Shown: one piece after another, positions 3 to 61,739 of the stretch
Layout of the letters: the number at the start of each line of letters is the position of its first letter
Position numbering within the stretch: the first letter of the stretch is position 1
NCBI GenBank assembly: GCA_963828195.1
Contig: CAWHDT010000001.1
Span: forward strand, 352,001 to 416,000
DNA: 64,000 nt
Reading direction: 5' to 3'
DNA from: Candidatus Bathyarchaeota archaeon
GTDB lineage: Archaea > Thermoproteota > Bathyarchaeia > Bathyarchaeales > Bathycorpusculaceae
Notes under the pieces: generated by a model
What the model saw: the letters and a program-made list of their open reading frames with translations, nothing else
Told to the model about the DNA's origin: nothing
The model's database searches: none
Program-made: the position numbers and the translations under genes

Positions 3-2267
3 ACACGGCAAACATACAACAACTCTTTCAGCCAGGGCAGCGATGCTGAAATATGGGCTGGAGTTGTAGCACAAGGCGCTTCTAAGAACATTACCATCAC
101 ATTTTTTGATACAGAAAACAGGGGAGCAGAAGCAGATATTTGTGAATATTCAGGAATAGCAACAAGCAATTTCTTAGACGCAACAGCTACTGCTCAAGGC
201 GGGCCAGTAAATCAAAGCGACACGGGAACTATCGAAACTACAAGGTCTGCAAATGAATTATGGATAGGGGCAGTAGAGATGGCAAACTATGGTCAAACTA
301 CTCCAGCTAAGAACTCCTTTACTTTATTTGATGGTAGTCAATTTCAGGAAGGAAGTTTAGCTTACCTTCAATATTTTGCAAACTCTGCTGGTCCAGCTGA
401 CTCTGGAGCCATCGCGGGTGGCTCAGATTATTATGTCGGCTGCATCGCTGCATTCTTTGAGCAGACGGGTACTATTGTATCCTGCGCTCCCAATCCCGCA
501 CTCGCCAACTCTGCAGTAACTTGCACAGCCATAGTGTATGGTTCTAATCCAACAGGAACAATAACTTGGAGCACAAACAGCAGCACAGGCAGCTTCAATT
601 CCGATACAACCGAACTTGCCTCAGGATTTTCAACAACAACTTATACAGACACAAACGCAGGAACAGTAACAGTTACAGCATCTTACAGTGGAGACTCAAA
701 CAATCCCCCTTCAGTTATAAACACAACTTTAACAATTAATCCTTCATGGCAACTAATTATATCTTCAAACGGCGCTTCAGCTGGAACAGTAAGCTTGGCA
801 TCGGGAATATACAGTTTAGCTCCAATGCCTATAGCCGCATTTCCCAACTCAGGGTATCAATTTCTCTATTGGGTAACTGCAGGCGGCGCAGTTTTAGCAT
901 CCAACTCTTCAACTACAACTGTTGCCGGTTCAGGAAATGGCGCCATAGAAGCATTCTTTTCACAGCGTTATTTAATCAATTCACGCACATTGACCATAGC
1001 TGGTTCAAGCACAGTTCTTCCAATTGCCAACGAAGAAGCAGGTCTATGGCAACCATACTGGAATAACTTGGTATCTCTAAACCCAAATTGGGGAGCTTCG
1101 CAATGTACTTCGCCTGTTCTTCCAGTAGGTCTAGGCAGTGGCACAGCAATCCCTGAATTGTCCGCCGGCATAGCTGACATCGGAGAAATGTCAAGACCAC
1201 CGTACAACGCAACCAACGAGTGGCTCGCACCATCAATGAGTGGCATGCAGCTATGGGCAGTCGGCATCGATAGTATCGCGATCGTTTTGAGTGCTTACAT
1301 GAATTGGTTCCCAACTAATTTGACTACATTGCAAGTTGCAAACCTATTTGCATCAAATCCAACTACCGGAGCACAATATACTACTTGGAATGACTTTTTA
1401 ACTGCAAATGGTTTTTCGGCTGTTCACCCACAAGGAGATGCTGACATTAACCGTGCGGTTATGGATCCAACATCTGGAACTTTCGACTGTTTCAACAATT
1501 ACTTTGCCGTACCAAACGGTTTCCAATTTGAGCATAATGCCAACGGCACAGTTGATGGTTCACAGAACATGGCACCGTATACCTACTGCCAAGAAGACAT
1601 TAACATGTACAACACAATAGGGGGACCTAACTATATTGGTTTTATATCCTTAGGGTACTTCCAAGTGTACGGACATATGATCGGCCTTAACGTTTCATAC
1701 AACATCGCTAATCTTCCAAGCTCAACTATCTCTGTTGTTACACCAGCAGTCTGGGGGCCATACGTTGCACCAACACGGGACAACGTTATCTATGCACTTT
1801 CAGACTACAAAGACACTGCAGCTACCGGTCAATACTTTGCATGGACATATCTTTGGGAAGTTACTCCAAGCACTATTCCTACTTGGGGTCCACTGTTAGA
1901 AACAGGAGTCTGGATTGCATACATGAAGGAAGGAAACACCACCCAAGGCGGCACAAGCGACTTTGTCAACGACCAAGGATACATCGAGCTTGACCGTGAC
2001 GACATAGCTGGCGGAACAGTAATTGACGGTGCCCTGCAACCACACGGTATCGGTCAAGGTTTAGCTGCAACTCAGACTCAGTCTATTCCCGACGGCAAAG
2101 TTAACTTCCAAGACTTAACATACTTCGTCTCCGCATACATCGCATACTACGACCGAGGACTATACAATCCATATGCAGACATGAATGCTGACGGCAAAAT
2201 CAACTTCAACGACCTCAAACTCTTCGTATCAGAATACATAACATACTACACAACATACGTACCTTAA
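3..2267 (+). CDS. Secreted multidomain protein, 5'-truncated by the window edge: extracellular beta-domain, Ig-like (Big_3-type) domain, InlB-B/Listeria-Bacteroides-like repeat, PstS-like domain, C-terminal dockerin
   Basis: The frame is open from position 3 (TRQTYNNSF...AEIWAG...ADICEYSG...NELWIGAVE runs into the ATG at 279). PstS motifs GSSTV, GSGTA, MSR, DPTSGTF. Dockerin pair DGKVNFQDL / DMNADGKINFNDL. Confidence 0.85.
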   Translation, partial: TRQTYNNSFSQGSDAEIWAGVVAQGASKNITITFFDTENRGAEADICEYSGIATSNFLDATATAQGGPVNQSDTGTIETTRSANELWIGAVEMANYGQTTPAKNSFTLFDGSQFQEGSLAYLQYFANSAGPADSGAIAGGSDYYVGCIAAFFEQTGTIVSCAPNPALANSAVTCTAIVYGSNPTGTITWSTNSSTGSFNSDTTELASGFSTTTYTDTNAGTVTVTASYSGDSNNPPSVINTTLTINPSWQLIISSNGASAGTVSLASGIYSLAPMPIAAFPNSGYQFLYWVTAGGAVLASNSSTTTVAGSGNGAIEAFFSQRYLINSRTLTIAGSSTVLPIANEEAGLWQPYWNNLVSLNPNWGASQCTSPVLPVGLGSGTAIPELSAGIADIGEMSRPPYNATNEWLAPSMSGMQLWAVGIDSIAIVLSAYMNWFPTNLTTLQVANLFASNPTTGAQYTTWNDFLTANGFSAVHPQGDADINRAVMDPTSGTFDCFNNYFAVPNGFQFEHNANGTVDGSQNMAPYTYCQEDINMYNTIGGPNYIGFISLGYFQVYGHMIGLNVSYNIANLPSSTISVVTPAVWGPYVAPTRDNVIYALSDYKDTAATGQYFAWTYLWEVTPSTIPTWGPLLETGVWIAYMKEGNTTQGGTSDFVNDQGYIELDRDDIAGGTVIDGALQPHGIGQGLAATQTQSIPDGKVNFQDLTYFVSAYIAYYDRGLYNPYADMNADGKINFNDLKLFVSEYITYYTTYVP

Positions 2268-7831: not shown

Positions 7832-9661
7832 TTACTCTTCATTGCTTAAATAGGTCTGCAGTTTTTCAATTTCTTGGCTCAGCATACCGAAATAGTTTTT
7901 GAGTGTTTCTTGGCGTTCTTCAATATGTCTGTTGAATTCTATTAGCAGTCGGTCAAACTGTTCCTTTTCCAGTTTAAGCGCTGTACTTAATGCTTGGATT
8001 ATTTTTTCGTTGTCTGCGATTCGGTTTCTGTAAGCTATAATTGCCTGTAACGTTGGTTCTTGAGGTAGATCGCCTGCCAAATTAGGTTTAGCAATAAGAT
8101 CTGATGTGTCTTCGATATCAATTAATTTCGTCTTTGCATTTTCCATTTCTTCACGAACCGATCCGAAGTAGTTTTCAAGTGTTCTCTCTCTCTCATCCAC
8201 CAGTTTATTTAGTTCTATCAGGTCTTGGGCAAGTTGCTCTCTCTTAGACTTAAGCGCGGTTTTTATAGCGTGGATTCTTTTCGCGGCACTTGAAACGCGG
8301 TTTAAATGAGCCAAAGTTTCATCAGCTGTCGGCTCCTGAGCTGAGGCAGGTTCTAAATCGGGTTTACCTACTTCTATAGTGGCTGCGAATTTGGATTGAG
8401 GTTCCATTATTTCTTTTAGGTTTGTTTTCGACATAATTGTCGCTTCCATTACTTTTTCTTGGGCTATTTTTGGAGTTGGGGCATTTAATTGCAGCGCTGG
8501 TTGTTGAGTGGTTTCTTGAGGTACCGTTGACGAAATAAGCACTGGCGTTGCTGACTGACCATTTTCTGGAGTGGATGTTTCTGGGTTAAGTGTTGAGGCT
8601 GTTGAAGATTGAGTGGTGGGTGTTTCATCGGTATTTGTAGAGTGATTTCTTCTCAAGAACAACGTGAGAATTGTGAATGTAAAGATTCCTGTTGCTATTA
8701 GGAGCCATGAGAAGAGGCTTACGGTATTTTCCACACTGTTAGGCGTTGGGGTAGGTCCAGATGTTGGCGTTGAAGAAGACGAAGGCGTGGGTGTCGATGA
8801 GGAAGTGGGTGTAGGAGTGGGATTGGTAGTTCCATCACTACTGGCAATTGTGAAAGTTGCGGTTTGGTTTTCTGCCATTGGTATGTTTATGCCGGCATAG
8901 GTTCCTGAGTTTATTGCTACGCTGATTTCGGCTTGGCCTGCGGTTGCGTTGTCGGGAATTTGGAGGATGGTTGATAACTGAGTTTGATTGGAGTTTGCTA
9001 TTTGGCTGTTTTGAATTTCTGTTTGGTTAATTATTTGACCCGTAGAATCTTGCAAGCTGAAAGTAACGTTTGCTGTTTGGGCTTGTCCTGGATTGTTTAT
9101 TGTTGCGTTAATTGAAACAAAGTCGCTGGGGGAAAAGACGGTATCGTTTTGGCCTTGTGAATTTGCGAGGTTGATGGCAGTAGTTTCAAGGTCCCATTGA
9201 GCTGTAAAGTTTAGACTTTTCTGAATAATGCCGTTGGTTGTTTGTATGGTTGCTATGGCTTGCCAAGTGCCAACCAGTAAGCTTTCATTTTCGCTTGCAA
9301 TTGGAAGACGGAATGAAAAACCTGCTTCCCCAGTGGTGTTTGTTGTTTCTATTCTGGTGATGGCAGTTTGGGAATTAGAATTTTGGGGGCCAGTTACGTT
9401 AAAGTAAACTAAGATGTCCGGTTGGGATGCATTGCCGTAAGTTACCGTTGCTAGGAGTTGAATTTGGTCGAAGGGTGCAAAGGTTGTGGTTACGTTGTTT
9501 TTGTTATTTTCTGCGGTAAGGCTCATTGCCCATTGGTTGTTTGATGTGTTATTTTGAGCGTGGGCCACGTTTAATGTTTGAGTTATTGCAAGTGAAAGAA
9601 TTAAAATTAGGAGAACGTTTAAAATCCGGTAGCACGCCTTTGAATTCTTCTGTCTTCTCAT
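7832..9661 (-). CDS. Single-pass membrane protein: extracellular two-domain module shared with the cohesin proteins, P/T linker, TM, cytoplasmic tandem coiled coils
   Basis: Signal peptide; FAPFDQIQL...FSFRLP...GTW...IPDNATAGQA module; TM WLLIATGIFTFTILTLFL; two ~70-aa repeats PTxx...LENYFG/LKNYFG. Starts 10 bp after pstA. Confidence 0.85.
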   Translation of the reverse strand: MRRQKNSKACYRILNVLLILILSLAITQTLNVAHAQNNTSNNQWAMSLTAENNKNNVTTTFAPFDQIQLLATVTYGNASQPDILVYFNVTGPQNSNSQTAITRIETTNTTGEAGFSFRLPIASENESLLVGTWQAIATIQTTNGIIQKSLNFTAQWDLETTAINLANSQGQNDTVFSPSDFVSINATINNPGQAQTANVTFSLQDSTGQIINQTEIQNSQIANSNQTQLSTILQIPDNATAGQAEISVAINSGTYAGINIPMAENQTATFTIASSDGTTNPTPTPTSSSTPTPSSSSTPTSGPTPTPNSVENTVSLFSWLLIATGIFTFTILTLFLRRNHSTNTDETPTTQSSTASTLNPETSTPENGQSATPVLISSTVPQETTQQPALQLNAPTPKIAQEKVMEATIMSKTNLKEIMEPQSKFAATIEVGKPDLEPASAQEPTADETLAHLNRVSSAAKRIHAIKTALKSKREQLAQDLIELNKLVDERERTLENYFGSVREEMENAKTKLIDIEDTSDLIAKPNLAGDLPQEPTLQAIIAYRNRIADNEKIIQALSTALKLEKEQFDRLLIEFNRHIEERQETLKNYFGMLSQEIEKLQTYLSNEE

Positions 9662-9671
9662 CTTTTTACAC

Positions 9672-11081
9672 TTATTGCCCCGTGATTTTCTTAGTTAAAT
9701 AGTTTCTTGCAATTAACGCAACAATGCAGATTGCTAAATATATCAAAACAAGATAGAATGCAGCCGCGCATACTACACCGTATTGCAAAAAAGCGGCGTT
9801 CGTATTAGGAGGCCCGGCGCCAAAGATCATTAAACTTGGTGCCTGCCAAATGAATACAGGCAAGTTTGGAATTTGCGTATGTAAACCAAACAGTTGGCTT
9901 AATGGTGGCAAAATCGTGGCTTTTCCGTTATCACCTATTACTCCCGCTTGGCTAACGTTCCCTACTGGGGTCCAGCTGGCGGTTAATGCTACAACTATTG
10001 TTTCTCCGATAGCTGATCCGAAGCCCAACAAAATTCCAGTTATTATTCCAGGTAACGCAGCAAAAAGTACTGCGTGTCGTGTCGTCTGCCATTTTGTTGC
10101 TCCAAGTGCAAAGGAGGCTTCTCGATAAGAGCCTGGTACGGATCGAATTGATTCTTCCGCTATTCGAATGTTCCATGGTAGAATCATGAATGCCAACGAT
10201 ATTGATCCTCCTATCAAAGTAAATCCCCAATGTAGAAATATGACAAAAACTGCCGCTCCTACTAAACCAATCACAACTGATGGAACTCCAGCCAGAGTTT
10301 CGACAAAATATCGGATAGTGATCGTAAATTTATTTTGACTTGCGTATTCTGAAAGGTATATAGCGGCTCCTAAACCTAGTGGTATAGCTATAAATTCACA
10401 AAAACCCGCAAGAAGTAAGGAACCTATTGCATACGGCAGTAATCCCCCAATGGAACCTTTGTTTACGCCTTCGATTACTTTAGTGGTCCAGGTAAATCCC
10501 CAATTTGAACTTGTGAAAAATGTCCAAGAAAGATAAGGTGATGCTCTCACTGCTAAGTAGGTGATCATACCTATCAAGATGCCTGCACAAATTAATCCCG
10601 ATAACCTTAAACCGAATTTTGCCAAGTTTTCTGTAACTATTGGCAGGTCTTTTGATTTAACTGAGGTATTTCTTCTTTTGTTGATTTCAATTGCAGCTGC
10701 TACAGCGGATAAAACAGTAATAATTAGGGCAAATTCGATATTTAAATTTCCTGAGACTGCCAATAATAGCGCTGTCACGCTGGACAATATTGACAATTTC
10801 CATCCATACGAATGCCCTTCCAAAAGAAGGTAACCTGTGGCAAATAAAATTAATGCTGGCCCCATTATCAGCAGCGAGTATGTTGTGTCAGCAACTAATC
10901 TATCAATAGTTGTTTGACCGAAGCCCTCTATTTGGATAGAATTAATAAGGTGAATTGCACCGGGCAAAGCCACAGCTACTCCTGCAGCAAATAGCAGGGC
11001 ACCTGCTACAAGGTTTTCCTTTTTCCTTTTCTTTAAATATCCCCATAGTTTCGTTGTTTCTTTTTTTAAGTTGTAATTCAT
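9672..11081 (-). CDS. pstA: Phosphate ABC transporter permease PstA with an extra N-terminal membrane domain
   Basis: AAIYLSEYA, LAGVPSVVIGL, LPWNIRIAEESIRSVP..YREASFALGATKWQT, AIGET. Confidence 0.93.
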   Translation of the reverse strand: MNYNLKKETTKLWGYLKKRKKENLVAGALLFAAGVAVALPGAIHLINSIQIEGFGQTTIDRLVADTTYSLLIMGPALILFATGYLLLEGHSYGWKLSILSSVTALLLAVSGNLNIEFALIITVLSAVAAAIEINKRRNTSVKSKDLPIVTENLAKFGLRLSGLICAGILIGMITYLAVRASPYLSWTFFTSSNWGFTWTTKVIEGVNKGSIGGLLPYAIGSLLLAGFCEFIAIPLGLGAAIYLSEYASQNKFTITIRYFVETLAGVPSVVIGLVGAAVFVIFLHWGFTLIGGSISLAFMILPWNIRIAEESIRSVPGSYREASFALGATKWQTTRHAVLFAALPGIITGILLGFGSAIGETIVVALTASWTPVGNVSQAGVIGDNGKATILPPLSQLFGLHTQIPNLPVFIWQAPSLMIFGAGPPNTNAAFLQYGVVCAAAFYLVLIYLAICIVALIARNYLTKKITGQ

Positions 11082-11106
11082 TTGCGTACCATTTCCTTGG
11101 GGATAA

Positions 11107-11973
11107 CTATCCTTTTGTTTTGTTTCTGCTTGCTGTGAGAGTTCTTATTACCAAATTGGTAAGTGCACACATGATGAAGAGAATAATTGCGCCCCCGAAA
11201 ACTAGACTGTAAATCGAGCTTCCGGGTTCGAAAGTGTCTTGTGTAGCTCTCGTCGCGATCCATGCGGTGAGGGAGTTGGTTTGGACAAATGGACTGAGGT
11301 TAATTGACGGTGGAGTAATTTGGCCGATTACCCATATTACGGCCATTGTTTCTCCTATGGCATTTGCGAAGGCTAGAACAATTGACGTGATTATTCCAGA
11401 CGATGCGCTTGACATTAGGACTCGAGTTGTCGTCTGCCATTTTGTTGCTCCCATTCCTAGAGATGCTTCTCTTAAATCTCCGGGTACTGCTCTTAAAGAA
11501 TCTTCTGAAACGCTTGTAATTAGTGGTAACGACATTATTCCAAGAACTATCCAGCCAACTAAAGTGCATTTTTCCGCATTCACGATTCCGAAGACACTTA
11601 AGTTAGCACATAAAATGATGAAACCTAAAAAACCGATGATGACTGATGGAAATCCGTTTAAGACTTCTAGGGTTGGTTTTATGATGTTTCTTATTCTTTT
11701 ATCAGCAAACTCCGCCAAGTATATTGCGCAGGGAATTCCGATAGCTACTCCTAATATTATGCCGCCAACGGCCAGGTATAACGTATCAAACATGTAAGGA
11801 ACCATCGGGTATATCGGGGAGCTGTTAAATCCATTAGCGATAAACTCGAATATTGTTGAGTACCCGTTAATTATTAAAAAAAACACTATGAAGAAAACTA
11901 TGCCGATTGAAGAGACAGCGCAAGAAAGCAAAGCTGCTTTGATCAAGTTTTCTTTAAGAAGCTTTTTATTCAT
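11107..11973 (-). CDS. pstC: Phosphate ABC transporter permease PstC
   Basis: AIYLAEFA, GFPSVIIGF, SEDSLRAVP..LREASLGMGATKWQT, AIGETMAV. Confidence 0.93.
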   Translation of the reverse strand: MNKKLLKENLIKAALLSCAVSSIGIVFFIVFFLIINGYSTIFEFIANGFNSSPIYPMVPYMFDTLYLAVGGIILGVAIGIPCAIYLAEFADKRIRNIIKPTLEVLNGFPSVIIGFLGFIILCANLSVFGIVNAEKCTLVGWIVLGIMSLPLITSVSEDSLRAVPGDLREASLGMGATKWQTTTRVLMSSASSGIITSIVLAFANAIGETMAVIWVIGQITPPSINLSPFVQTNSLTAWIATRATQDTFEPGSSIYSLVFGGAIILFIMCALTNLVIRTLTASRNKTKG

Positions 11974-12211
11974 GCCTCCCCGTTTTCTCCTTTCTTCTGT
12001 GCGTCTAAAAAGTTGGAAACTGCTAAGATAATGCTTTTCTATTTATAATTCATAGTCTAATTAGAAACACCTGTGCTCACAGGTTATCGCTTCCCAGATC
12101 AATAGACTAAATTGTTTACCATAAATTACATCGACAAGCTAGATATTCACTCGACACAAAGGTATTGTCTGAACGAGTAATCGTTCAAAGATCTAGAAAG
12201 GAGAATAAAAA
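11974..12211. promoter_or_regulatory. Divergent pstC/pstS promoter region with ~9-10-bp periodic ATnGAnTA-like repeats
   Basis: ATAGACTAA-ATTGTTTACC-ATAAATTAC-ATCGACAAGCTAGATA at 12102-12145; a similar arrangement on the minus strand toward pstC; AAGGAG SD before pstS. Confidence 0.5.
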
Positions 12212-13684
12212 ATGAATAGTAAACAAAAAACAATAGTATCTATGTTGATATTAGCATTGCTAGCACTTACGACAGCTGCAACTTTTGTAAATGCATCGGG
12301 CTTACCTTTCCAAAACAACCAGTTAGTCAATTCAAACACATTGACCATTTATGGCTCAAGCACAGTTCTTCCAATTGCTAACGAAGAAGCAGGCCAATGG
12401 CAAACATACTGGAACAACTTGGTCACTCTAAACCCCAGCTGGGGCGCAGATTCATGCACCACACCAGTTACTCCCGTAGGTCAAGGCAGCGGAACAGCAA
12501 TCCCCGCATTGACAGCCGGAACAGCTGATATTGGTGAAATGTCTAGACCACCAAACAATCAAACCACTGAATGGCTCTCAACAACGGTGCCCAGCCTGCA
12601 GATTTGGGGCGTCGGAATCGACAGCGTCGCAATCGTTTTGAGTCCTGACATGACCTGGTTCGTAACAGAACTCGCCACATTAGAAGGCACATCTAATCCA
12701 GGCCTAAACACTGCAGAAGTCGCTGCACTATTCGGAAATGGCGTGGTTGGCAGCCCTAACATTGGTGGACTACCGACAACAACATTCAACACTTGGAATG
12801 ACTTCTTCAACTACTACTTCCCAACCAACTACACAGCAGTTCCACAAGGAAGCAACACCATTAACCGGGCAGTGAGAGATCCAACTTCAGGAACATTCGA
12901 CTGCTTCAACAACTACTTTGCAGTACCAAACGGCTACCAATTTGAACACAAAACCAACAGTATCGTTGACGCTTCTCAGAACATGGCAGCATACACTTAC
13001 TGCGAAGCAAACATTGACATCTACAACACAGTACACGCTGGAACTAACTACATCGGCTTCATATCCTTAGGCTACCTCCAAGTCTACGGCGGCATGATTG
13101 GCATATCCGTCTCATACAACACTGCGAGCCTTCCGAGCTCAACTATAGCGGTCGTTACTCCAGCAGTATGGAGTACATACGTTACGCCAACACGAGACAA
13201 CGTAATCTACGCACTCTCAAACTACAAAGACACTGCAGCCACAGGTCAATACTTCGCATGGAGATACCTCTGGGAAGTAACACCTAGCACAATCCCATCC
13301 ACTGGTCCACTCTTAGAAACAGGAGTCTGGATTGCATACATGATGGAGCCAGGCACAACTGGAAACAGCACTAACCCAAGCAACTTCGTTAACGACCAAG
13401 CCTACATTAGTCTTGACCGTGACGACATGGCCGGCACACCAACACTCAACGGCGCATTAGGCGTACAAACTTCAAGTCTACAACCAGGTCAGACCACAAC
13501 TATCCCAGACGGCAAAGTTAACTTCCACGACTTAACCTACTTCGTCTCTGCTTACATCGCATACTACAACCAAGGAACATACAACCCATACGCAGACATG
13601 AACGCTGACGGCAAAATCAACTTCAACGACCTCAAACTCTTCGTATCAACATACATAGCATACTTTACAACATACGTACCATAA
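12212..13684 (+). CDS. pstS: Phosphate-binding protein PstS with C-terminal dockerin
   Basis: Class I signal peptide (VNA|S) with no lipobox Cys; GSSTV, GSGTA, DIGEMSR, RDPTSGTF; dockerin DGKVNFHDL / DMNADGKINFNDL; divergent from pstCA. Confidence 0.92.
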   Translation: MNSKQKTIVSMLILALLALTTAATFVNASGLPFQNNQLVNSNTLTIYGSSTVLPIANEEAGQWQTYWNNLVTLNPSWGADSCTTPVTPVGQGSGTAIPALTAGTADIGEMSRPPNNQTTEWLSTTVPSLQIWGVGIDSVAIVLSPDMTWFVTELATLEGTSNPGLNTAEVAALFGNGVVGSPNIGGLPTTTFNTWNDFFNYYFPTNYTAVPQGSNTINRAVRDPTSGTFDCFNNYFAVPNGYQFEHKTNSIVDASQNMAAYTYCEANIDIYNTVHAGTNYIGFISLGYLQVYGGMIGISVSYNTASLPSSTIAVVTPAVWSTYVTPTRDNVIYALSNYKDTAATGQYFAWRYLWEVTPSTIPSTGPLLETGVWIAYMMEPGTTGNSTNPSNFVNDQAYISLDRDDMAGTPTLNGALGVQTSSLQPGQTTTIPDGKVNFHDLTYFVSAYIAYYNQGTYNPYADMNADGKINFNDLKLFVSTYIAYFTTYVP

Positions 13685-13710
13685 AAAAACCCCATCTTTT
13701 CTTTTTTTTT
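13685..13710 (+). terminator. Oligo-T archaeal terminator-like tract between pstS and the next gene
   Basis: CCCCATCTTTTCTTTTTTTTT; similar tracts follow the genes ending at 15937, 47092 and 57346. Confidence 0.5.
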
Positions 13711-13738
13711 ATGATAACATGAAAGGAGAACAAAAAAA

Positions 13739-15937
13739 ATGAAAACCAAAATATTTAAAACCAAATCAGTAATAGCTTTGGCACTGGTCCTTTTTATGGT
13801 CGTGCCAATGCTGTTTGCGGCTTTACCAGGTGTTAAAGCCCAAACCACGCCAGTGCTCAGCGTTGTTCCTGATGGCCAACCAGGCGCCACCATGACAACA
13901 ATGATAGCTGGCTTGGCGGTCGGCTCAACATTCACGGTAGACATCCGCGTCGACGACATAGGCGACATTAGCCAAGGCATAAACGGCTTAAGCTACAGCA
14001 TAACCTACAACGCAGCAGTCCTCCAACTAACTGGACACGCAACAAAGAACGCATCATTCTGGGGTGCCAACGTAGGTGACGTCACATCTATCGTCACTAC
14101 AAGCAGCGGCGTCTTCACAGAATCCGCAATCATCGTTCCATCCGGAGCACCAGACGAATCAACAAACACACCAGGCGTTGCAACAACCTTAACCTTCAAA
14201 GTACTAACCACAGGACAAAGCGACATTAACTTCCAGCCAAGCGACGTCGGAGTAGCATACTTAACCTACCCAGATGCAGTGGGAAATAGCCACGACGTAA
14301 CTGCCAACGTAGAGAACGCAATATACAACCAATTAACCACCTCAATCAGCGCATATCAACATGGCACAGCCAACTCAGTCATCCAATTCGCTCCAAACAC
14401 TGACCCAATAGGCAGCACCTTCACAGTAGACGTCAACATCACCAACCAATTAGCAGAGCCCATATGGGGATACAATGTCGGCGTCAACTGGAACCCAGCA
14501 GTACTCCAACTAGAAACAGTGACTGAAGGAACATACCTCAACAGCGCACCAGGCCTATATGATGGCAGCTCAACACTCTTCATTGCAGGATCAATAGACA
14601 ACGTCCACGGAGACATCCCACAAGGCGTCAGCGACGTATACCTGACAAACGAGACAACCACATCACTGTCAGGCACACTGTTCAACTTAACCTTCGAAGT
14701 AATAAACTACGCCAACAGCAGCATAAACTTAACCCCAGGCAATCCAACATTGATCGACAACCTTGGAAACAGCCAATCAGTCACCCTAAACAGCGCACAA
14801 TATGTCACCCTAGCACCACCAGCACCTACCTCACCAGTTGCAGTTATATCTCCTCCAGCATCAACAATGTACCTCGCAGGAGCACCACTATCCTTAACAG
14901 GAATAAACTCTCAACCAGGAGTTGACTACATTCCAAACGCACAATCGCCAATCTTCCCAATCACAACATACACTTGGACCGTACCAGCAGGTATCACCAT
15001 TACTGGCCAAGGCACAGCCACAATAAACTTCACAGGACCAACCCCAGCAGCTGATATCACAATCGGATTAACCGTCTCAACCGCAACAAACCCATCAGAC
15101 CTATCATACGTTAACGTAAGCAACGAAACAACAATCATACTATCACCAGCATTCACCAACCCAACCACTGCAGGCGCACAAATAGACGTTTACGTAGTAG
15201 CACCCTTCCCATACGCAGGATTCGCTCCCATTAGCCAAGGAATCTTCAACAACACAAACCCAGCCGCTTCCTTAGTAGACACCTACGCACCACAACAACT
15301 CATGAGCCTAGAAGCATACGTCGGATATAACGGAGCAACAGTAGCAGACAAACTGGTAACATTCTACGTAACAGCCTACAACAACCCAAGTGATGTAATC
15401 GCAACATTCGTAGGATACACCAATGACAACGGAATCATAGACACATCCTATCGCCTACCAAACTATAACAGCTCTGTCATGCCCTTCGGAGAATACACAG
15501 TAACCGCAACCGTTGATGTCGCACAAGTACAAGTAACCGACTGCTTTAGCTTCGAATACAACTATATCCTGAACTTCGCATCAGTAACAACACCCGCAGA
15601 AACAGCCCGAGGCCAAGCAGCAACCTCACAAATAACCATAGCTAACAACGCATTCACAACCCAACCATACTACCTAACCTACACCGTCACAGACAACAAC
15701 AACGTACCAATCCTTTCAGGTTCAGCCAATGGAACAGCTACAATTGTTGCAACTCCAATTAACGCCCAAGGAATTAACACAGCATTTACAATCACCTTGA
15801 ACCTTCCATCATACGCTTTCGTTGGAACAGCAACCCTACACGTAGACCTCTTCAACGCCAACCCAGCAACTCAAAACGGCCTACCATACTGCCCAGAAAA
15901 CGACCAAACATTCACCATCGCAATCCCAGCAGCATAA
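13739..15937 (+). CDS. Secreted scaffoldin-like protein: 2 cohesins + PKD-like domain + conserved two-domain C-terminal module
   Basis: VGSTFTVDIRV...YNAAVLQL...GVATTLTFKV and IGSTFTVDVNI...WNPAVLQL..VTEGTYL...GTLFNLTFEV; ends LPSYAFVGTATLHV...LPYCPE. Confidence 0.85.
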   Translation: MKTKIFKTKSVIALALVLFMVVPMLFAALPGVKAQTTPVLSVVPDGQPGATMTTMIAGLAVGSTFTVDIRVDDIGDISQGINGLSYSITYNAAVLQLTGHATKNASFWGANVGDVTSIVTTSSGVFTESAIIVPSGAPDESTNTPGVATTLTFKVLTTGQSDINFQPSDVGVAYLTYPDAVGNSHDVTANVENAIYNQLTTSISAYQHGTANSVIQFAPNTDPIGSTFTVDVNITNQLAEPIWGYNVGVNWNPAVLQLETVTEGTYLNSAPGLYDGSSTLFIAGSIDNVHGDIPQGVSDVYLTNETTTSLSGTLFNLTFEVINYANSSINLTPGNPTLIDNLGNSQSVTLNSAQYVTLAPPAPTSPVAVISPPASTMYLAGAPLSLTGINSQPGVDYIPNAQSPIFPITTYTWTVPAGITITGQGTATINFTGPTPAADITIGLTVSTATNPSDLSYVNVSNETTIILSPAFTNPTTAGAQIDVYVVAPFPYAGFAPISQGIFNNTNPAASLVDTYAPQQLMSLEAYVGYNGATVADKLVTFYVTAYNNPSDVIATFVGYTNDNGIIDTSYRLPNYNSSVMPFGEYTVTATVDVAQVQVTDCFSFEYNYILNFASVTTPAETARGQAATSQITIANNAFTTQPYYLTYTVTDNNNVPILSGSANGTATIVATPINAQGINTAFTITLNLPSYAFVGTATLHVDLFNANPATQNGLPYCPENDQTFTIAIPAA

Positions 15938-16617: not shown

Positions 16618-18813
16618 TTGGGGTTCAGAAACTTTTTTTGTTTTGTTCTCATTCTTATTTTAGCTGTGTCCTTTTTTTCTTTATCGATGAGTTTTACCCA
16701 TGCAGTCAGCAGCGGACCTGTACTCAGTGTAGTGCTTTCAGGAACTATTAATGATTCGACTCTTCCTACTGTGGCAGTTGGTTCCACCTTTAGCGTAGAT
16801 GTGCGAATAGACAACACAGGCAGTGTAAATCCTGGCATTAACTCAATCAGTTTCACATTAACTTGGAATCCTGCGGTGTTGCAGTGCATTAACGCAGCGG
16901 ATGGAACCTTCCTGCCAAACCAATCCAATTCAGGAGATCGTTCACCCGATAACAACGTTGGAAATGTCACATATGGCCTCAGTGTTCTCGATGCAAGCAA
17001 CCCAATGGATTGCGAGCCAGGGGGAAGTACCGGAGTGGTTGCCACTGTTACATTCCAAGTGTTGGAATCGGCTCAAAGCGGGCTCAACATTGTACCCAGC
17101 AGCCAAAACGTCGTATACCTTACATACCCTAACGGCAGCGGAAATAGCTTAAATGTGACCAACACACAAATTGTTGACGCCCTATTCAACCAAATGCTTA
17201 CCTCAATTAACGTCTACCAACTTAACACAAGCAATTCGACAATCCAATTTCCCTATGGAACTGATCCGATATACAACACCTTCACTGTAGATGTAAACAT
17301 CACTAATGCTGCGGCAGAACCCATATGGGCTTGGAGCATTGGCGTCTACTGGAACCCACAAGTGCTCCAATTGGACACAATAACTCAAGGAAACTACTTG
17401 ACAAATGTTGGCGGTCTCTATGACGGTAGCCCTACATTGTTCATTGCTGGCCCGATAGACAACACCGCAGGTCCTTTCCCAGTTGACAACGTTCATGGCA
17501 CAATCGATCAAGGAATAAGTGATGTGTACCTTTCGAACACTACAACCACCAAGCTGTCCGGTAGCCTATGCATCTTGACTTTCCAAGTTATCAGCTACGG
17601 CAATAGCTACATTAACATAACAACGGGCAATCCAACTCTAATTGACAACTTGGGCAATTCACAACCAGTTGTTTTAAACGAGGGACAGTACGTAGGTGTG
17701 ACTCCGCCACCACCAAAAGCACCAACTGCAATAATCCACAATGAAGCGGCAACTACAAGTTTTCTACCAGGAGCAACAATCACATTGGACGCGTTTAGTT
17801 CAACGCCTGGATCGGATGTTACTCCAAACCCTAATACACCGAATTTTCCAATATTATCTTACACATGGGCTGTCAGCGGAATATCTGGGTTTACTATACC
17901 CTCAAGCGGCAGCTCAATTACTTTTCTAGCACCGAACCCGGCAAGTTCATTCCTCGTCACCCTGACCGTTTCCACAGCACCTAACCCCGCAGACCCAAAC
18001 TATGTGAGCACAGACAGCGCCTCTATTGAGTTCGACCCTGCATATCAACAGCTGACAAGTGCTGGTGCTCAAATTGATCTGTACATAGTTAATCCCAACC
18101 CGACAAACACGTCGTACCCAATTAAATTTCCAACCAGCCAAGGAATCTACAACAACACTTCTCCGACCGGTTCTTATGTTGATACATTTTCTCCAGAGGA
18201 AGAGTTGGATCTCCAAACGTTCATCGTGTACAACGGTGCGGCAGTGCCAAATACGCTAGTGACCTTTGTTGTAACCCCTGAGAATAATCCGTCAGATGTC
18301 CTAGCAAACTTTGTAGCATATTCTAACGATAATGGGTATGCAACAGCAACATACCGTCTTCCGACGTATAACGACGCCGATATGCCCTTCGGTAATTATA
18401 CAGTCACTGCTTTTGTTGACATAGCTCAGGTGAGAGTAAGTGACTGCTTTACCTTCCAATTTAACTACGTGCTCAATATATACTCAGTAACGCAACCACC
18501 GGAAACTGCAAGAGGACAACAAACGAGCTTCACAGCAACCATACAATGCAATTCTTTCATAGAACAAAATTACTTTTTAAGCTGGACTTTAACGGACAGC
18601 AACAACGTGCCAATCATTTCAGGTGAGACTTCCGGAACAGCTTTTCCAGGCAGCGGAAACATCCAATACGTAACATTGACTATTCCAACATACTCCTACA
18701 ATGGAACAGCAACCCTGCACGTAAACTTGTTCAATGGTAACCCCGAGTTTCTGTCTCAAGATGCTCTACCATACTGTCCGGAAAGCGATCAGTCCTTAAC
18801 AATATTGCCCTAA
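16618..18813 (+). CDS. Paralogous scaffoldin-like protein: 2 cohesins + PKD-like domain + C-terminal module
   Basis: Collinear with 13739..15937 (GLYDGS.TLFIAG, GNPTLIDNLGNSQ, MPFG.YTVTA.VD.AQV, LPYCPE); TTG start after GAGGGGG. Confidence 0.85.
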   Translation: MGFRNFFCFVLILILAVSFFSLSMSFTHAVSSGPVLSVVLSGTINDSTLPTVAVGSTFSVDVRIDNTGSVNPGINSISFTLTWNPAVLQCINAADGTFLPNQSNSGDRSPDNNVGNVTYGLSVLDASNPMDCEPGGSTGVVATVTFQVLESAQSGLNIVPSSQNVVYLTYPNGSGNSLNVTNTQIVDALFNQMLTSINVYQLNTSNSTIQFPYGTDPIYNTFTVDVNITNAAAEPIWAWSIGVYWNPQVLQLDTITQGNYLTNVGGLYDGSPTLFIAGPIDNTAGPFPVDNVHGTIDQGISDVYLSNTTTTKLSGSLCILTFQVISYGNSYINITTGNPTLIDNLGNSQPVVLNEGQYVGVTPPPPKAPTAIIHNEAATTSFLPGATITLDAFSSTPGSDVTPNPNTPNFPILSYTWAVSGISGFTIPSSGSSITFLAPNPASSFLVTLTVSTAPNPADPNYVSTDSASIEFDPAYQQLTSAGAQIDLYIVNPNPTNTSYPIKFPTSQGIYNNTSPTGSYVDTFSPEEELDLQTFIVYNGAAVPNTLVTFVVTPENNPSDVLANFVAYSNDNGYATATYRLPTYNDADMPFGNYTVTAFVDIAQVRVSDCFTFQFNYVLNIYSVTQPPETARGQQTSFTATIQCNSFIEQNYFLSWTLTDSNNVPIISGETSGTAFPGSGNIQYVTLTIPTYSYNGTATLHVNLFNGNPEFLSQDALPYCPESDQSLTILP

Positions 18814-61226: not shown

Positions 61227-61739
61227 GTGAAGAAACACATTTTTGCATTGACCGTTTTCTTGGTGCTTCTATGTTCATTAACAAGTTTTGCCGCTGCCTC
61301 GCAGACATTTACCGTCTCACCTGAAAGCAAACAAACTGTAAGCGTGAATTTAAGTCAAGGCGATTTCGTTAATGGCTCACTTTCTGTGTCAGGCGGCACT
61401 GGAACAGGCGTCAATTTTGCCGTGACTGACCCAAACGGAAAACAATTATTGAGTTACAACTATACCTCCTACCAAAGCTTCTCTTTTTCTGCCCAAATTA
61501 ATGGAAACTACACGTTGAGTTTTGATAATTCATTCTGTTCCTGCGTAGGCGGCAAAAATGTAACTTTGGAGTACTCTGTTAATAACAAACCAACTCAAGT
61601 AAACCTACAAAGTGGATCCAACGGAGGGTTCCCCATTGCAACAGCAATCCTTCTAGTCGCTGTAATTCCAGCGATAGCGGCGGTTGCAATCTCAATAAGG
61701 CACTTGAGAGGCAACACGAATAATAAAACGGAACTTTAG
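61227..61739 (+). CDS. emp24/p24 (GOLD-like) domain membrane protein
   Basis: Signal peptide; VSGG...VNF.VTDP.G; FSF.A...GNY.L.FDNSF....K.V.L; C-terminal TM. Confidence 0.7.
   Translation: MKKHIFALTVFLVLLCSLTSFAAASQTFTVSPESKQTVSVNLSQGDFVNGSLSVSGGTGTGVNFAVTDPNGKQLLSYNYTSYQSFSFSAQINGNYTLSFDNSFCSCVGGKNVTLEYSVNNKPTQVNLQSGSNGGFPIATAILLVAVIPAIAAVAISIRHLRGNTNNKTEL

Follow-up and report, generated by a model that had tools for sequence, protein, structure and literature searches.

Introduction

How proteins recognise anions is classically illustrated by the phosphate-binding protein PstS, whose natural variants reveal which contacts are dispensable. The phosphate site comprises R135/S139/G140/T141 in E. 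coli PstS (PMC6549937) and R125/S129/G130/T131 in C. perfringens PBP-1 (PMC5381212). S-type PstS proteins are defined by a Ser in place of the Asp that forms a low-barrier hydrogen bond (E. coli D56), and they have a conserved Thr in the N-terminal part, a conserved Asp in mid-sequence, and a conserved Arg in the C-terminal part, of which the Asp-Arg pair polarises the Thr/Ser ligands (PMC13614923). The same paper describes SphX of Synechocystis (9WP7), an S-type protein with Pro142 at the position of the phosphate-contacting Arg, reduced affinity, and a higher-affinity paralogue alongside, in which the R231A mutation shifts the affinity from nanomolar to millimolar (PMC13614923). Here, we describe P0004, a predicted secreted protein of an uncultured archaeon (Candidatus Bathyarchaeota archaeon, assembly GCA_963828195.1), whose S-type PstS-like domain carries other residues at the positions of two conserved arginines. 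Its gene runs across the first edge of the 64,000-nucleotide stretch of DNA analysed here, called the window (G000:C1:352001-416000, from a genome of 2.83 Mb in 9 contigs).

P0004 resembles the S-type proteins C. perfringens PBP-1 (4Q8R), V. cholerae 1TWY, 4OMB/4PQJ, and 4JWO in its predicted type II fold, its G-S-S/T-S/T loop, the Ser of its GSG motif, the Ser at the Asp56 position, the SGT spacing, the Asp in mid-sequence, and the place of the YPxxR motif. Unlike these proteins, it has Met and Thr in place of the arginines, about 100 inserted residues, a dockerin, and three N-terminal modules, and its family scores fall far under the curated cut-off. SphX shares the absence of the phosphate-contacting Arg, but it keeps the second-shell Arg231 that it needs for affinity, which P0004 lacks, and it is a soluble/periplasmic transporter component without a dockerin, whereas P0004 is dockerin borne. 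P0004 belongs to a family of Bathyarchaeial PstS-like dockerin proteins, with its paralogue P0002 and about 110 members with Arg at both sites (R/R): it is 67% identical to P0002, falls in the same clade, and has the same dockerin. It differs from the R/R members in the absence of both arginines, in carrying an N-terminal domain, an Ig-like domain, and a B-repeat, and in its location about 10 kb from pstC/pstA.

Cohesin-dockerin systems outside cellulosomes have reportedly been discussed for ANME (anaerobic methanotrophic) archaea. As in such non-cellulosomal archaeal systems, dockerin-bearing surface proteins are encoded here beside cohesin proteins, and no cellulase cargo was seen; the difference is that the cargo here would be an ATP-binding cassette (ABC) transporter binding protein and its degenerate paralogue. 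A full-text literature search, with subscription journals outside its coverage, turned up no publication on archaeal PstS proteins that carry a dockerin.

Results

Two conserved arginines are replaced in the PstS-like domain of P0004

The translation of P0004 contains INRAVMDPTSGTF, and that of P0002, which is encoded in the same window, contains INRAVRDPTSGTF. The codon AGA of P0002 (12875-12877) corresponds to ATG in P0004, a two-base change from Arg to Met (Met577 in P0004 numbering) that the first-pass annotation of this DNA had already described. The family profile pairs the segment ...aVRDptSGT... with G-R-N-S-V-S-G-T of 4omb/4pqj and with T-R-E-A-S-S-G-T of 1twy, and the motif spacing in the family (R, S at +4, G at +5, and T at +6) is the same as that given for the E. 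coli and C. perfringens proteins. By homology, as seen in the profile alignment and the motif spacing, Met577 would occupy the site of the phosphate-contacting Arg, which agrees with the original assignment.

The loss of a second conserved Arg had previously gone unnoticed here and is a new finding. In P0004 this residue is Thr705, encoded by ACA, and the corresponding codon of P0002 is AGA (13262-13264). In the family, this Arg lies in the segment Y-x-A-W-R-W-L-W-E-V and matches the Arg within GAYPVARPLFYIT of P0218, a classical homologue that in turn aligns with YPLSRFLY (4pqj/4omb), PLSRPLF (4jwo), and YPLQRPF (4h1x). These alignments identify it as the Arg of the S-type "YPxxRPL" motif.

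Apart from these positions, little has changed in the conserved core. The 86 canonical members of the family define 89 columns that are at least 90% conserved, and P0004 is unchanged at 85 of them; the four exceptions are the two arginines, an Asn-to-Asp replacement, and a Phe-to-Trp replacement that is also present in P0002. The older degenerate proteins P0037, P0039, P0080, and P0092 keep 68 to 76 conserved columns, a count made with a slightly stricter column set and therefore indicative. All of the hydroxyl/backbone loops are kept in P0004 (GSSTV, GSGTA, and TSGT), and the EMSR segment, which aligns with MSR of 4omb and TSR of 1twy, places a Ser at the position of E. coli Asp56, as in the S-type proteins; the first-pass annotation had claimed the retention of GSSTV, GSGTA, and MSR, and this stands. 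The T of GSSTV is the family counterpart of the S-type N-terminal Thr. The spacing between Ser78 and Asp104 in the family (+26) equals that between Ser63 and Asp89 in SphX, and the mid-sequence Asp is present in P0004 (GIDS), with the presumed Arg partner of this second-shell pair gone.

Both substitutions are genuine. Contigs of the public runs X1, X2, X3, and X5, from 4 studies, cover the Met codon with 0 differences, and those of X1, X3, and X5 cover the Thr codon with 0 differences. Three of the four matching runs are labelled soil and one is labelled bog metagenome; one of them is possibly the source sample. P0008, a 99%-identical protein encoded on another contig, also carries M and T. 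Because the same codon recurs in contigs of four public runs from four studies, the Met is not a sequencing error, and AGA at position 1461, which the first-pass annotation had named as an outcome that would overturn its claim, is supported by none of these contigs. The public runs listed with contigs that match the gene include no RNA dataset.

The dN/dS ratio (omega, nonsynonymous to synonymous divergence) against the pstS-like copy, a comparison proposed earlier, is about 0.2. By the Nei-Gojobori method, omega between P0004 and P0002 is 0.24 overall and 0.174 in the binding domain, and a three-taxon analysis assigns 0.25 to the P0004 branch versus 0.23 and 0.27 to two R/R lineages; all of these values are rough, since dS is near saturation (~1). 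They indicate that the gene is under purifying selection and is not decaying freely.

Joint loss of the two arginines within the family

A word-indexed search returned 106 relatives, and an exhaustive profile search returned 1128 representatives at E ≤ 0.001, of which 68 reach E ≤ 1e-30. The profile alignment comprises 251 proteins, 119 of them with coverage of every key column. Both arginines are present in 111 of these 119, one protein is K/R, and seven have lost both, with M/T at the two sites in two proteins and I/T, M/N, S/Y, P/T, and P/L in one each; loss of just one Arg was found in 0 of the 119. The same double-loss pattern is seen in P0111 (T/H) and P0174 (S/Q), but these two proteins do not cover some of the key columns.

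A careful tree of 37 rows, calculated with both Arg columns removed, places P0004 and P0008 in a clade with 100/99 support that also holds the R/R proteins P0002, P0005, P0006, and P0007. On this tree 3 changes are required to explain the degenerate label, and 0% of the bootstrap trees permit 1. In a quick tree of 94 rows the number is 5, of which at least 4 are forced. By these phylogenies, the joint Arg loss arose in at least three lineages. Other double-loss proteins have gone further: in P0037/P0039, S-D-E replaces S-S-T and the T of the SGT loop has become V, and the ligand residues of P0080 and P0092 have decayed too. Degenerate binding domains are fused to cohesin modules in P0111 (1121 amino acids [aa]) and P0092 (826 aa).

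A sample of 60 genomes from this GTDB family, one of them from the same genus, gave no match at E ≤ 1e-20. Family members in L021, L034, L036, L037, and L038, all of them long-read metagenome-assembled genomes (MAGs), contain frameshifts or in-frame stops, which are either assembly errors or signs of pseudogenes.

The binding domain is predicted to have the PstS fold

An AlphaFold2 (AF2) model of the binding domain, made from a 60-sequence alignment, has a predicted local distance difference test score (pLDDT) of 90.0 and a predicted template modelling score (pTM) of 0.88. Foldseek ranks 1 to 45, as listed, are all phosphate-binding or DING proteins, with short S-type proteins first (4jwo, 4gd5, 1twy, and 4n13) and 4jwo as the best match (E 4.6e-16). 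Profile matches among solved structures are 4omb, 4pqj, 1twy, and 4jwo; a profile search was needed for this, because P0002 as a single query sequence yielded no match under E 0.39 among the solved structures. On the strength of the model, the fold of the binding domain is that of PstS.

Curated family models place P0004 and P0002 well outside the canonical PstS proteins. On TIGR02136 they score 37.1 and 44 bits, respectively, against a cut-off of 206.6, and the first-pass description of the comparator P0002 as pstS does not hold. PF12849 was not reported for P0004 at E ≤ 0.01, although its score in a six-frame search is 27.3 bits (cut-off, 27). The genome has two genes on contig C5 that score 358 and 247 bits on TIGR00975 (cut-off, 205), and neither P0004 nor P0002 is its canonical PstS. 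One of these two genes adjoins a sensor histidine kinase gene, and the other is the first gene of a pstS-pstC-pstA operon; the genome therefore has two separate Pst-type permease sets.

Architecture of P0004 and comparison with P0002

The open reading frame (ORF) of P0004 is open at the 5' edge of the window. The upstream part of the gene was recovered from the genome contig, as had been proposed, and adds 268 nucleotides to give an intact ORF of 844 aa that starts at G000:C1:351733 (L009:11733). The start codon is TTG, preceded by a GGAG motif, and the N terminus is hydrophobic and signal-peptide-like. The order of domains is signal peptide, N-terminal module, Ig domain, InlB B-repeat, PstS-like binding domain, linker, and dockerin (Table 1). 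The first-pass annotation had placed the binding domain behind at least three extracellular beta-domains: three extracellular modules do precede it, namely the unassigned N-terminal module, the Ig-like domain, and the B-repeat.

The N-terminal module has zero Pfam matches, even at E ≤ 10, and no stand-alone homologue of 121 to 385 aa was found. Its Atlas matches (at 0.94) are to unnamed, mostly viral clusters only, and an AF2 model from 3 sequences reached a pLDDT of 37 and is unusable. Homologues in fused form occur in P0113 and P0119, and a paralogue with 38% identity forms the start of a beta-helix surface protein encoded on contig C8. At the other end of P0004, the first dockerin repeat is shortened and the second, DMNADGKINFNDL, has a canonical look; both family scores of this module are under their cut-offs (Table 1), and the dockerin of P0002 scores 21.2.

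P0004 and P0002 are identical at 311 of 461 positions (67%) by BLASTP, and their DNA identity is about 0.7 to 0.85 in the binding domain and 0.85 to 0.95 in the dockerin, where the two genes have an exact 45-nucleotide run in common at 2187. P0004 had been called a close copy of pstS; the near-identical dockerin DNA bears this out, but at 67% protein identity the copy is close only in a relative sense. Synonymous divergence between the two genes is 0.375 in the dockerin versus 1.0 in the binding domain, and the low value in the dockerin suggests gene conversion or a common constraint on the docking module.

Genomic setting

The pstC- and pstA-like genes lie about 7.4 to 9.7 kb downstream of P0004, on the opposite strand and with their own adjacent R/R copy, and pstB and phoU lie about 35 kb from the P0004 gene. 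The order of the window cluster (7832-15937) is 609-aa membrane protein <- pstA <- pstC <-|-> binding protein-dockerin -> two-cohesin protein. In a comparison with loci L019-L037, nearly all of them from Bathyarchaeota MAGs, pstC/pstA adjoin the binding protein gene in 17 of 20 loci, and a cohesin protein gene lies directly downstream in 15 of 20. The 3 loci away from pstC/pstA are second copies on contigs that also have an adjacent copy. This arrangement suggests an ABC transporter binding protein that is tethered by a cohesin-dockerin pair and not by a lipid or membrane anchor. In L022 and L031, the full archaeal-type cluster appears under bacterial MAG names (Limnocylindrales and Acidoferrum), which is probably a matter of mis-binning and not of transfer.

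The gene of the 609-aa protein is kept downstream of pstA in most related loci. The protein belongs to no Pfam family. Its signal peptide is followed by an outer part of about 270 aa that is rich in beta structure (weak MG2 match, E 0.057), and a linker rich in Ser, Thr, and Pro leads to a single membrane helix; the tail on the cytoplasmic side has two long near-repeats, which are coiled-coil-like and give a very weak PhoU match (E 0.92). From these features it is a candidate membrane anchor or signalling partner.

The P0004 gene itself lies within a run of co-directional dockerin and cohesin genes, downstream of the genes for polyphosphate kinase (PPK1) and a CYTH protein. An island of about 50 kb (window 13739-36736 plus L009:5247-11569) encodes at least 7 proteins with cohesins (among them P0003 and one at 16618-18813) and at least 8 with dockerins; their cargo domains mostly belong to no family and are otherwise limited to CARDB/BsuPI, MG2, PKD, and Ig-like domains. 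Its flanks are phosphate related, with PPK1 and CYTH upstream and phoU-like and pstB genes downstream. Just upstream of P0004, a 601-aa protein (L009:9764-11569, plus strand) combines a weak dockerin-like segment (389-436) with a cohesin (461-570), which is an adaptor-scaffoldin arrangement. Elsewhere in the window, a 170-aa ORF (61227-61739, plus strand) matches emp24/gp25L/p24 GOLD with 51.1 bits against a cut-off of 25.9; this family is mostly eukaryotic and hence unusual in an archaeal genome.

Table 1. Features of P0004, of the neighbouring cluster, and of the canonical PstS genes (window positions unless a locus is named)
Feature	Position	Strand	Evidence or remark
P0004, part within the window: 3' 754 codons plus stop of an 844-aa gene	3..2267	+	
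N-terminal module, ~220 aa, part within the window, family unassigned	3..482	+	
Ig-like domain, Big_3_5-like	483..737	+	33.2 bits, under the cut-off of 35.5; E 8e-8
Divergent InlB B-repeat (Flg_new_2)	765..962	+	24.3 bits vs cut-off 23.6
PstS-like type II substrate-binding domain, S-type, ~350 aa	960..2018	+	AF2 model, Foldseek, profile matches
ATG = Met at the position of the phosphate-contacting Arg	1461..1463	+	Arg in 99% of 86 canonical members
Asp (Asp622 of P0004) in place of Asn	1596..1598	+	Alignment; Asn in 97% of 86 canonical members
ACA = Thr at the second conserved Arg	1845..1847	+	Arg in 100% of 86 canonical members
Dockerin-like module	2073..2264	+	Dockerin_1 16.9 bits (cut-off 22.9); NF041540 23.8 (cut-off 29)
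Conserved 609-aa single-pass membrane protein	7832-9661	-	Translation, synteny
pstA-like	9672-11081	-	189.3 bits vs cut-off 193.45
pstC-like	11107-11973	-	192.3 bits vs cut-off 196.45
Comparator paralogue P0002, both arginines present	12212..13684	+	Divergent from pstC; followed by the cohesin protein gene
Cohesin-bearing protein P0003, presumed docking partner	13739..15937	+	Cohesin 29.9 bits vs cut-off 24.1, 2 stretches
Canonical PstS gene on G000:C5	L012:1366-2484	-	TIGR00975
Canonical PstS gene on G000:C5	L013:1255-2592	+	TIGR00975

Discussion

The binding domain of P0004 is probably, although we hold this with restraint, a selected and charge-neutralised derivative that has lost useful affinity for HPO4(2-) and is displayed on the same cohesin scaffold, with a possibly changed ligand. 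The C-terminal half of this secreted multidomain protein would be a duplicate of a dockerin-bearing S-type PstS-like protein that would normally serve the adjacent PstC/PstA permease. At the predicted anion site, the Arg that would contact phosphate has given way to Met, the second-shell Arg that would pair with the conserved Asp to Thr, and an Asn to Asp, with the cage of S-S-T, GSG, MS, and SGT and the Asp itself retained. With both cationic residues replaced, the pocket would be neutralised in charge and would not bind HPO4(2-) with useful affinity. P0004 would be displayed through its dockerin on a cohesin scaffold common to the transport copy; the two dockerins are nearly identical, and the same scaffold is therefore the most likely one. 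There it may act outside transport as a module that binds a ligand of less anionic character, or it may bind phosphate very weakly. The loss of the second Arg bears on this assessment because SphX shows that the first Arg alone is dispensable. The proposal of altered affinity or ligand made in the first-pass annotation is strengthened by the second loss, but the low-affinity relay or sensor offered there as a further option has become less likely, given the millimolar affinity reported for SphX R231A.

It is conceivable, but in our judgement unlikely, that P0004 is still a phosphate receptor of lower affinity or of another protonation preference, or a relay or sensor on the same scaffold. In a detailed form of this explanation, H2PO4- would be bound at the pH of acid bog or soil, with the freed Asp acceptors replacing the Arg donors, and the soil and bog labels of the matching metagenomes fit it, as do the retention of all eight hydroxyl/backbone ligand positions and of the mid-sequence Asp, the purifying selection on the gene, and the phosphate-themed region with PPK1, CYTH, pstCA, phoU, and pstB. 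The SphX precedent cuts both ways: this protein binds phosphate without the first Arg and the R231A mutant retains residual binding, but R231A alone is enough to bring it to the millimolar range, and in P0004 the Arg losses together with Asn to Asp amount to about -3 net charge at or near the anion site. The other double-loss lineages (P0037/P0039, P0080, and P0092) went on to lose ligand residues, which suggests that phosphate binding was abandoned after the arginines were lost. Another explanation is that of a ligand-free pseudo-receptor in which the fold serves as a structural, adaptor, or spacer module of the cohesin-dockerin assembly. The fusion of degenerate domains to cohesin modules in P0111 and P0092 and the position of the P0004 domain behind three other extracellular modules are in keeping with such a use, but P0004 keeps the rest of its pocket, at 85 of 89 columns versus 68 to 76 in the older degenerate lineages, and this retention would be unexpected in a mere spacer unless the Arg loss were very recent; we regard this explanation as improbable. 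A sequencing or assembly error or a decaying pseudogene is more improbable by far. The gene is cut by the window edge, and related genes in L021, L034, L036, L037, and L038 are interrupted, but P0004 itself is an intact ORF of 844 aa with a motif resembling a ribosome-binding site and a signal peptide, its two-base change is the same in contigs of 4 runs from 4 studies, its 99%-identical twin P0008 has M and T, and omega is about 0.17 to 0.25.

Several points nevertheless weigh against a selected, charge-neutralised derivative. SphX binds phosphate without the first Arg, via Pro142 and waters (PMC13614923). The equation of the second Arg with SphX Arg231 was derived from chained motif alignments and the text of that paper, and homology is the sole basis for placing Met, Thr, and Asp near the pocket. 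The retained pocket would fit either continued use or a very recent loss of the arginines. The near-saturation of dS also tempers the selection argument, and the co-loss test is weak, with a sign-test p of 0.25 for the 3 independent pairs, in all of which the second Arg goes the way of the first. Finally, in L032 a degenerate, cohesin-fused copy adjoins pstC and the R/R copy lies 2 kb further on, which means that gene position does not tell function.

A broader form of the charge-neutralised reading, which we consider doubtful, is that the double Arg loss and Asn to Asp, with the hydroxyl cage intact under purifying selection, mark a recurrent switch among the dockerin-displayed PstS-like proteins of Bathyarchaeia, from a dianion to an uncharged or more protonated oxy-ligand, with the new receptor presented on the scaffold of the true transport receptor. 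Candidates would be H2PO4-/H3PO4 at bog pH and silicic, boric, or arsenous acid, and a cation is also possible.

In P0004, both cationic residues have been removed from an anion site and the rest has been kept, and the same double removal has taken place several times within one family. This recurrence makes the family a natural experiment on the S-type pocket without charge compensation and P0004 a candidate for a new ligand specificity. The setting is unusual as well, in that binding proteins of ABC transporters are apparently tethered by dockerin and cohesin in uncultured archaea of soil and peat.

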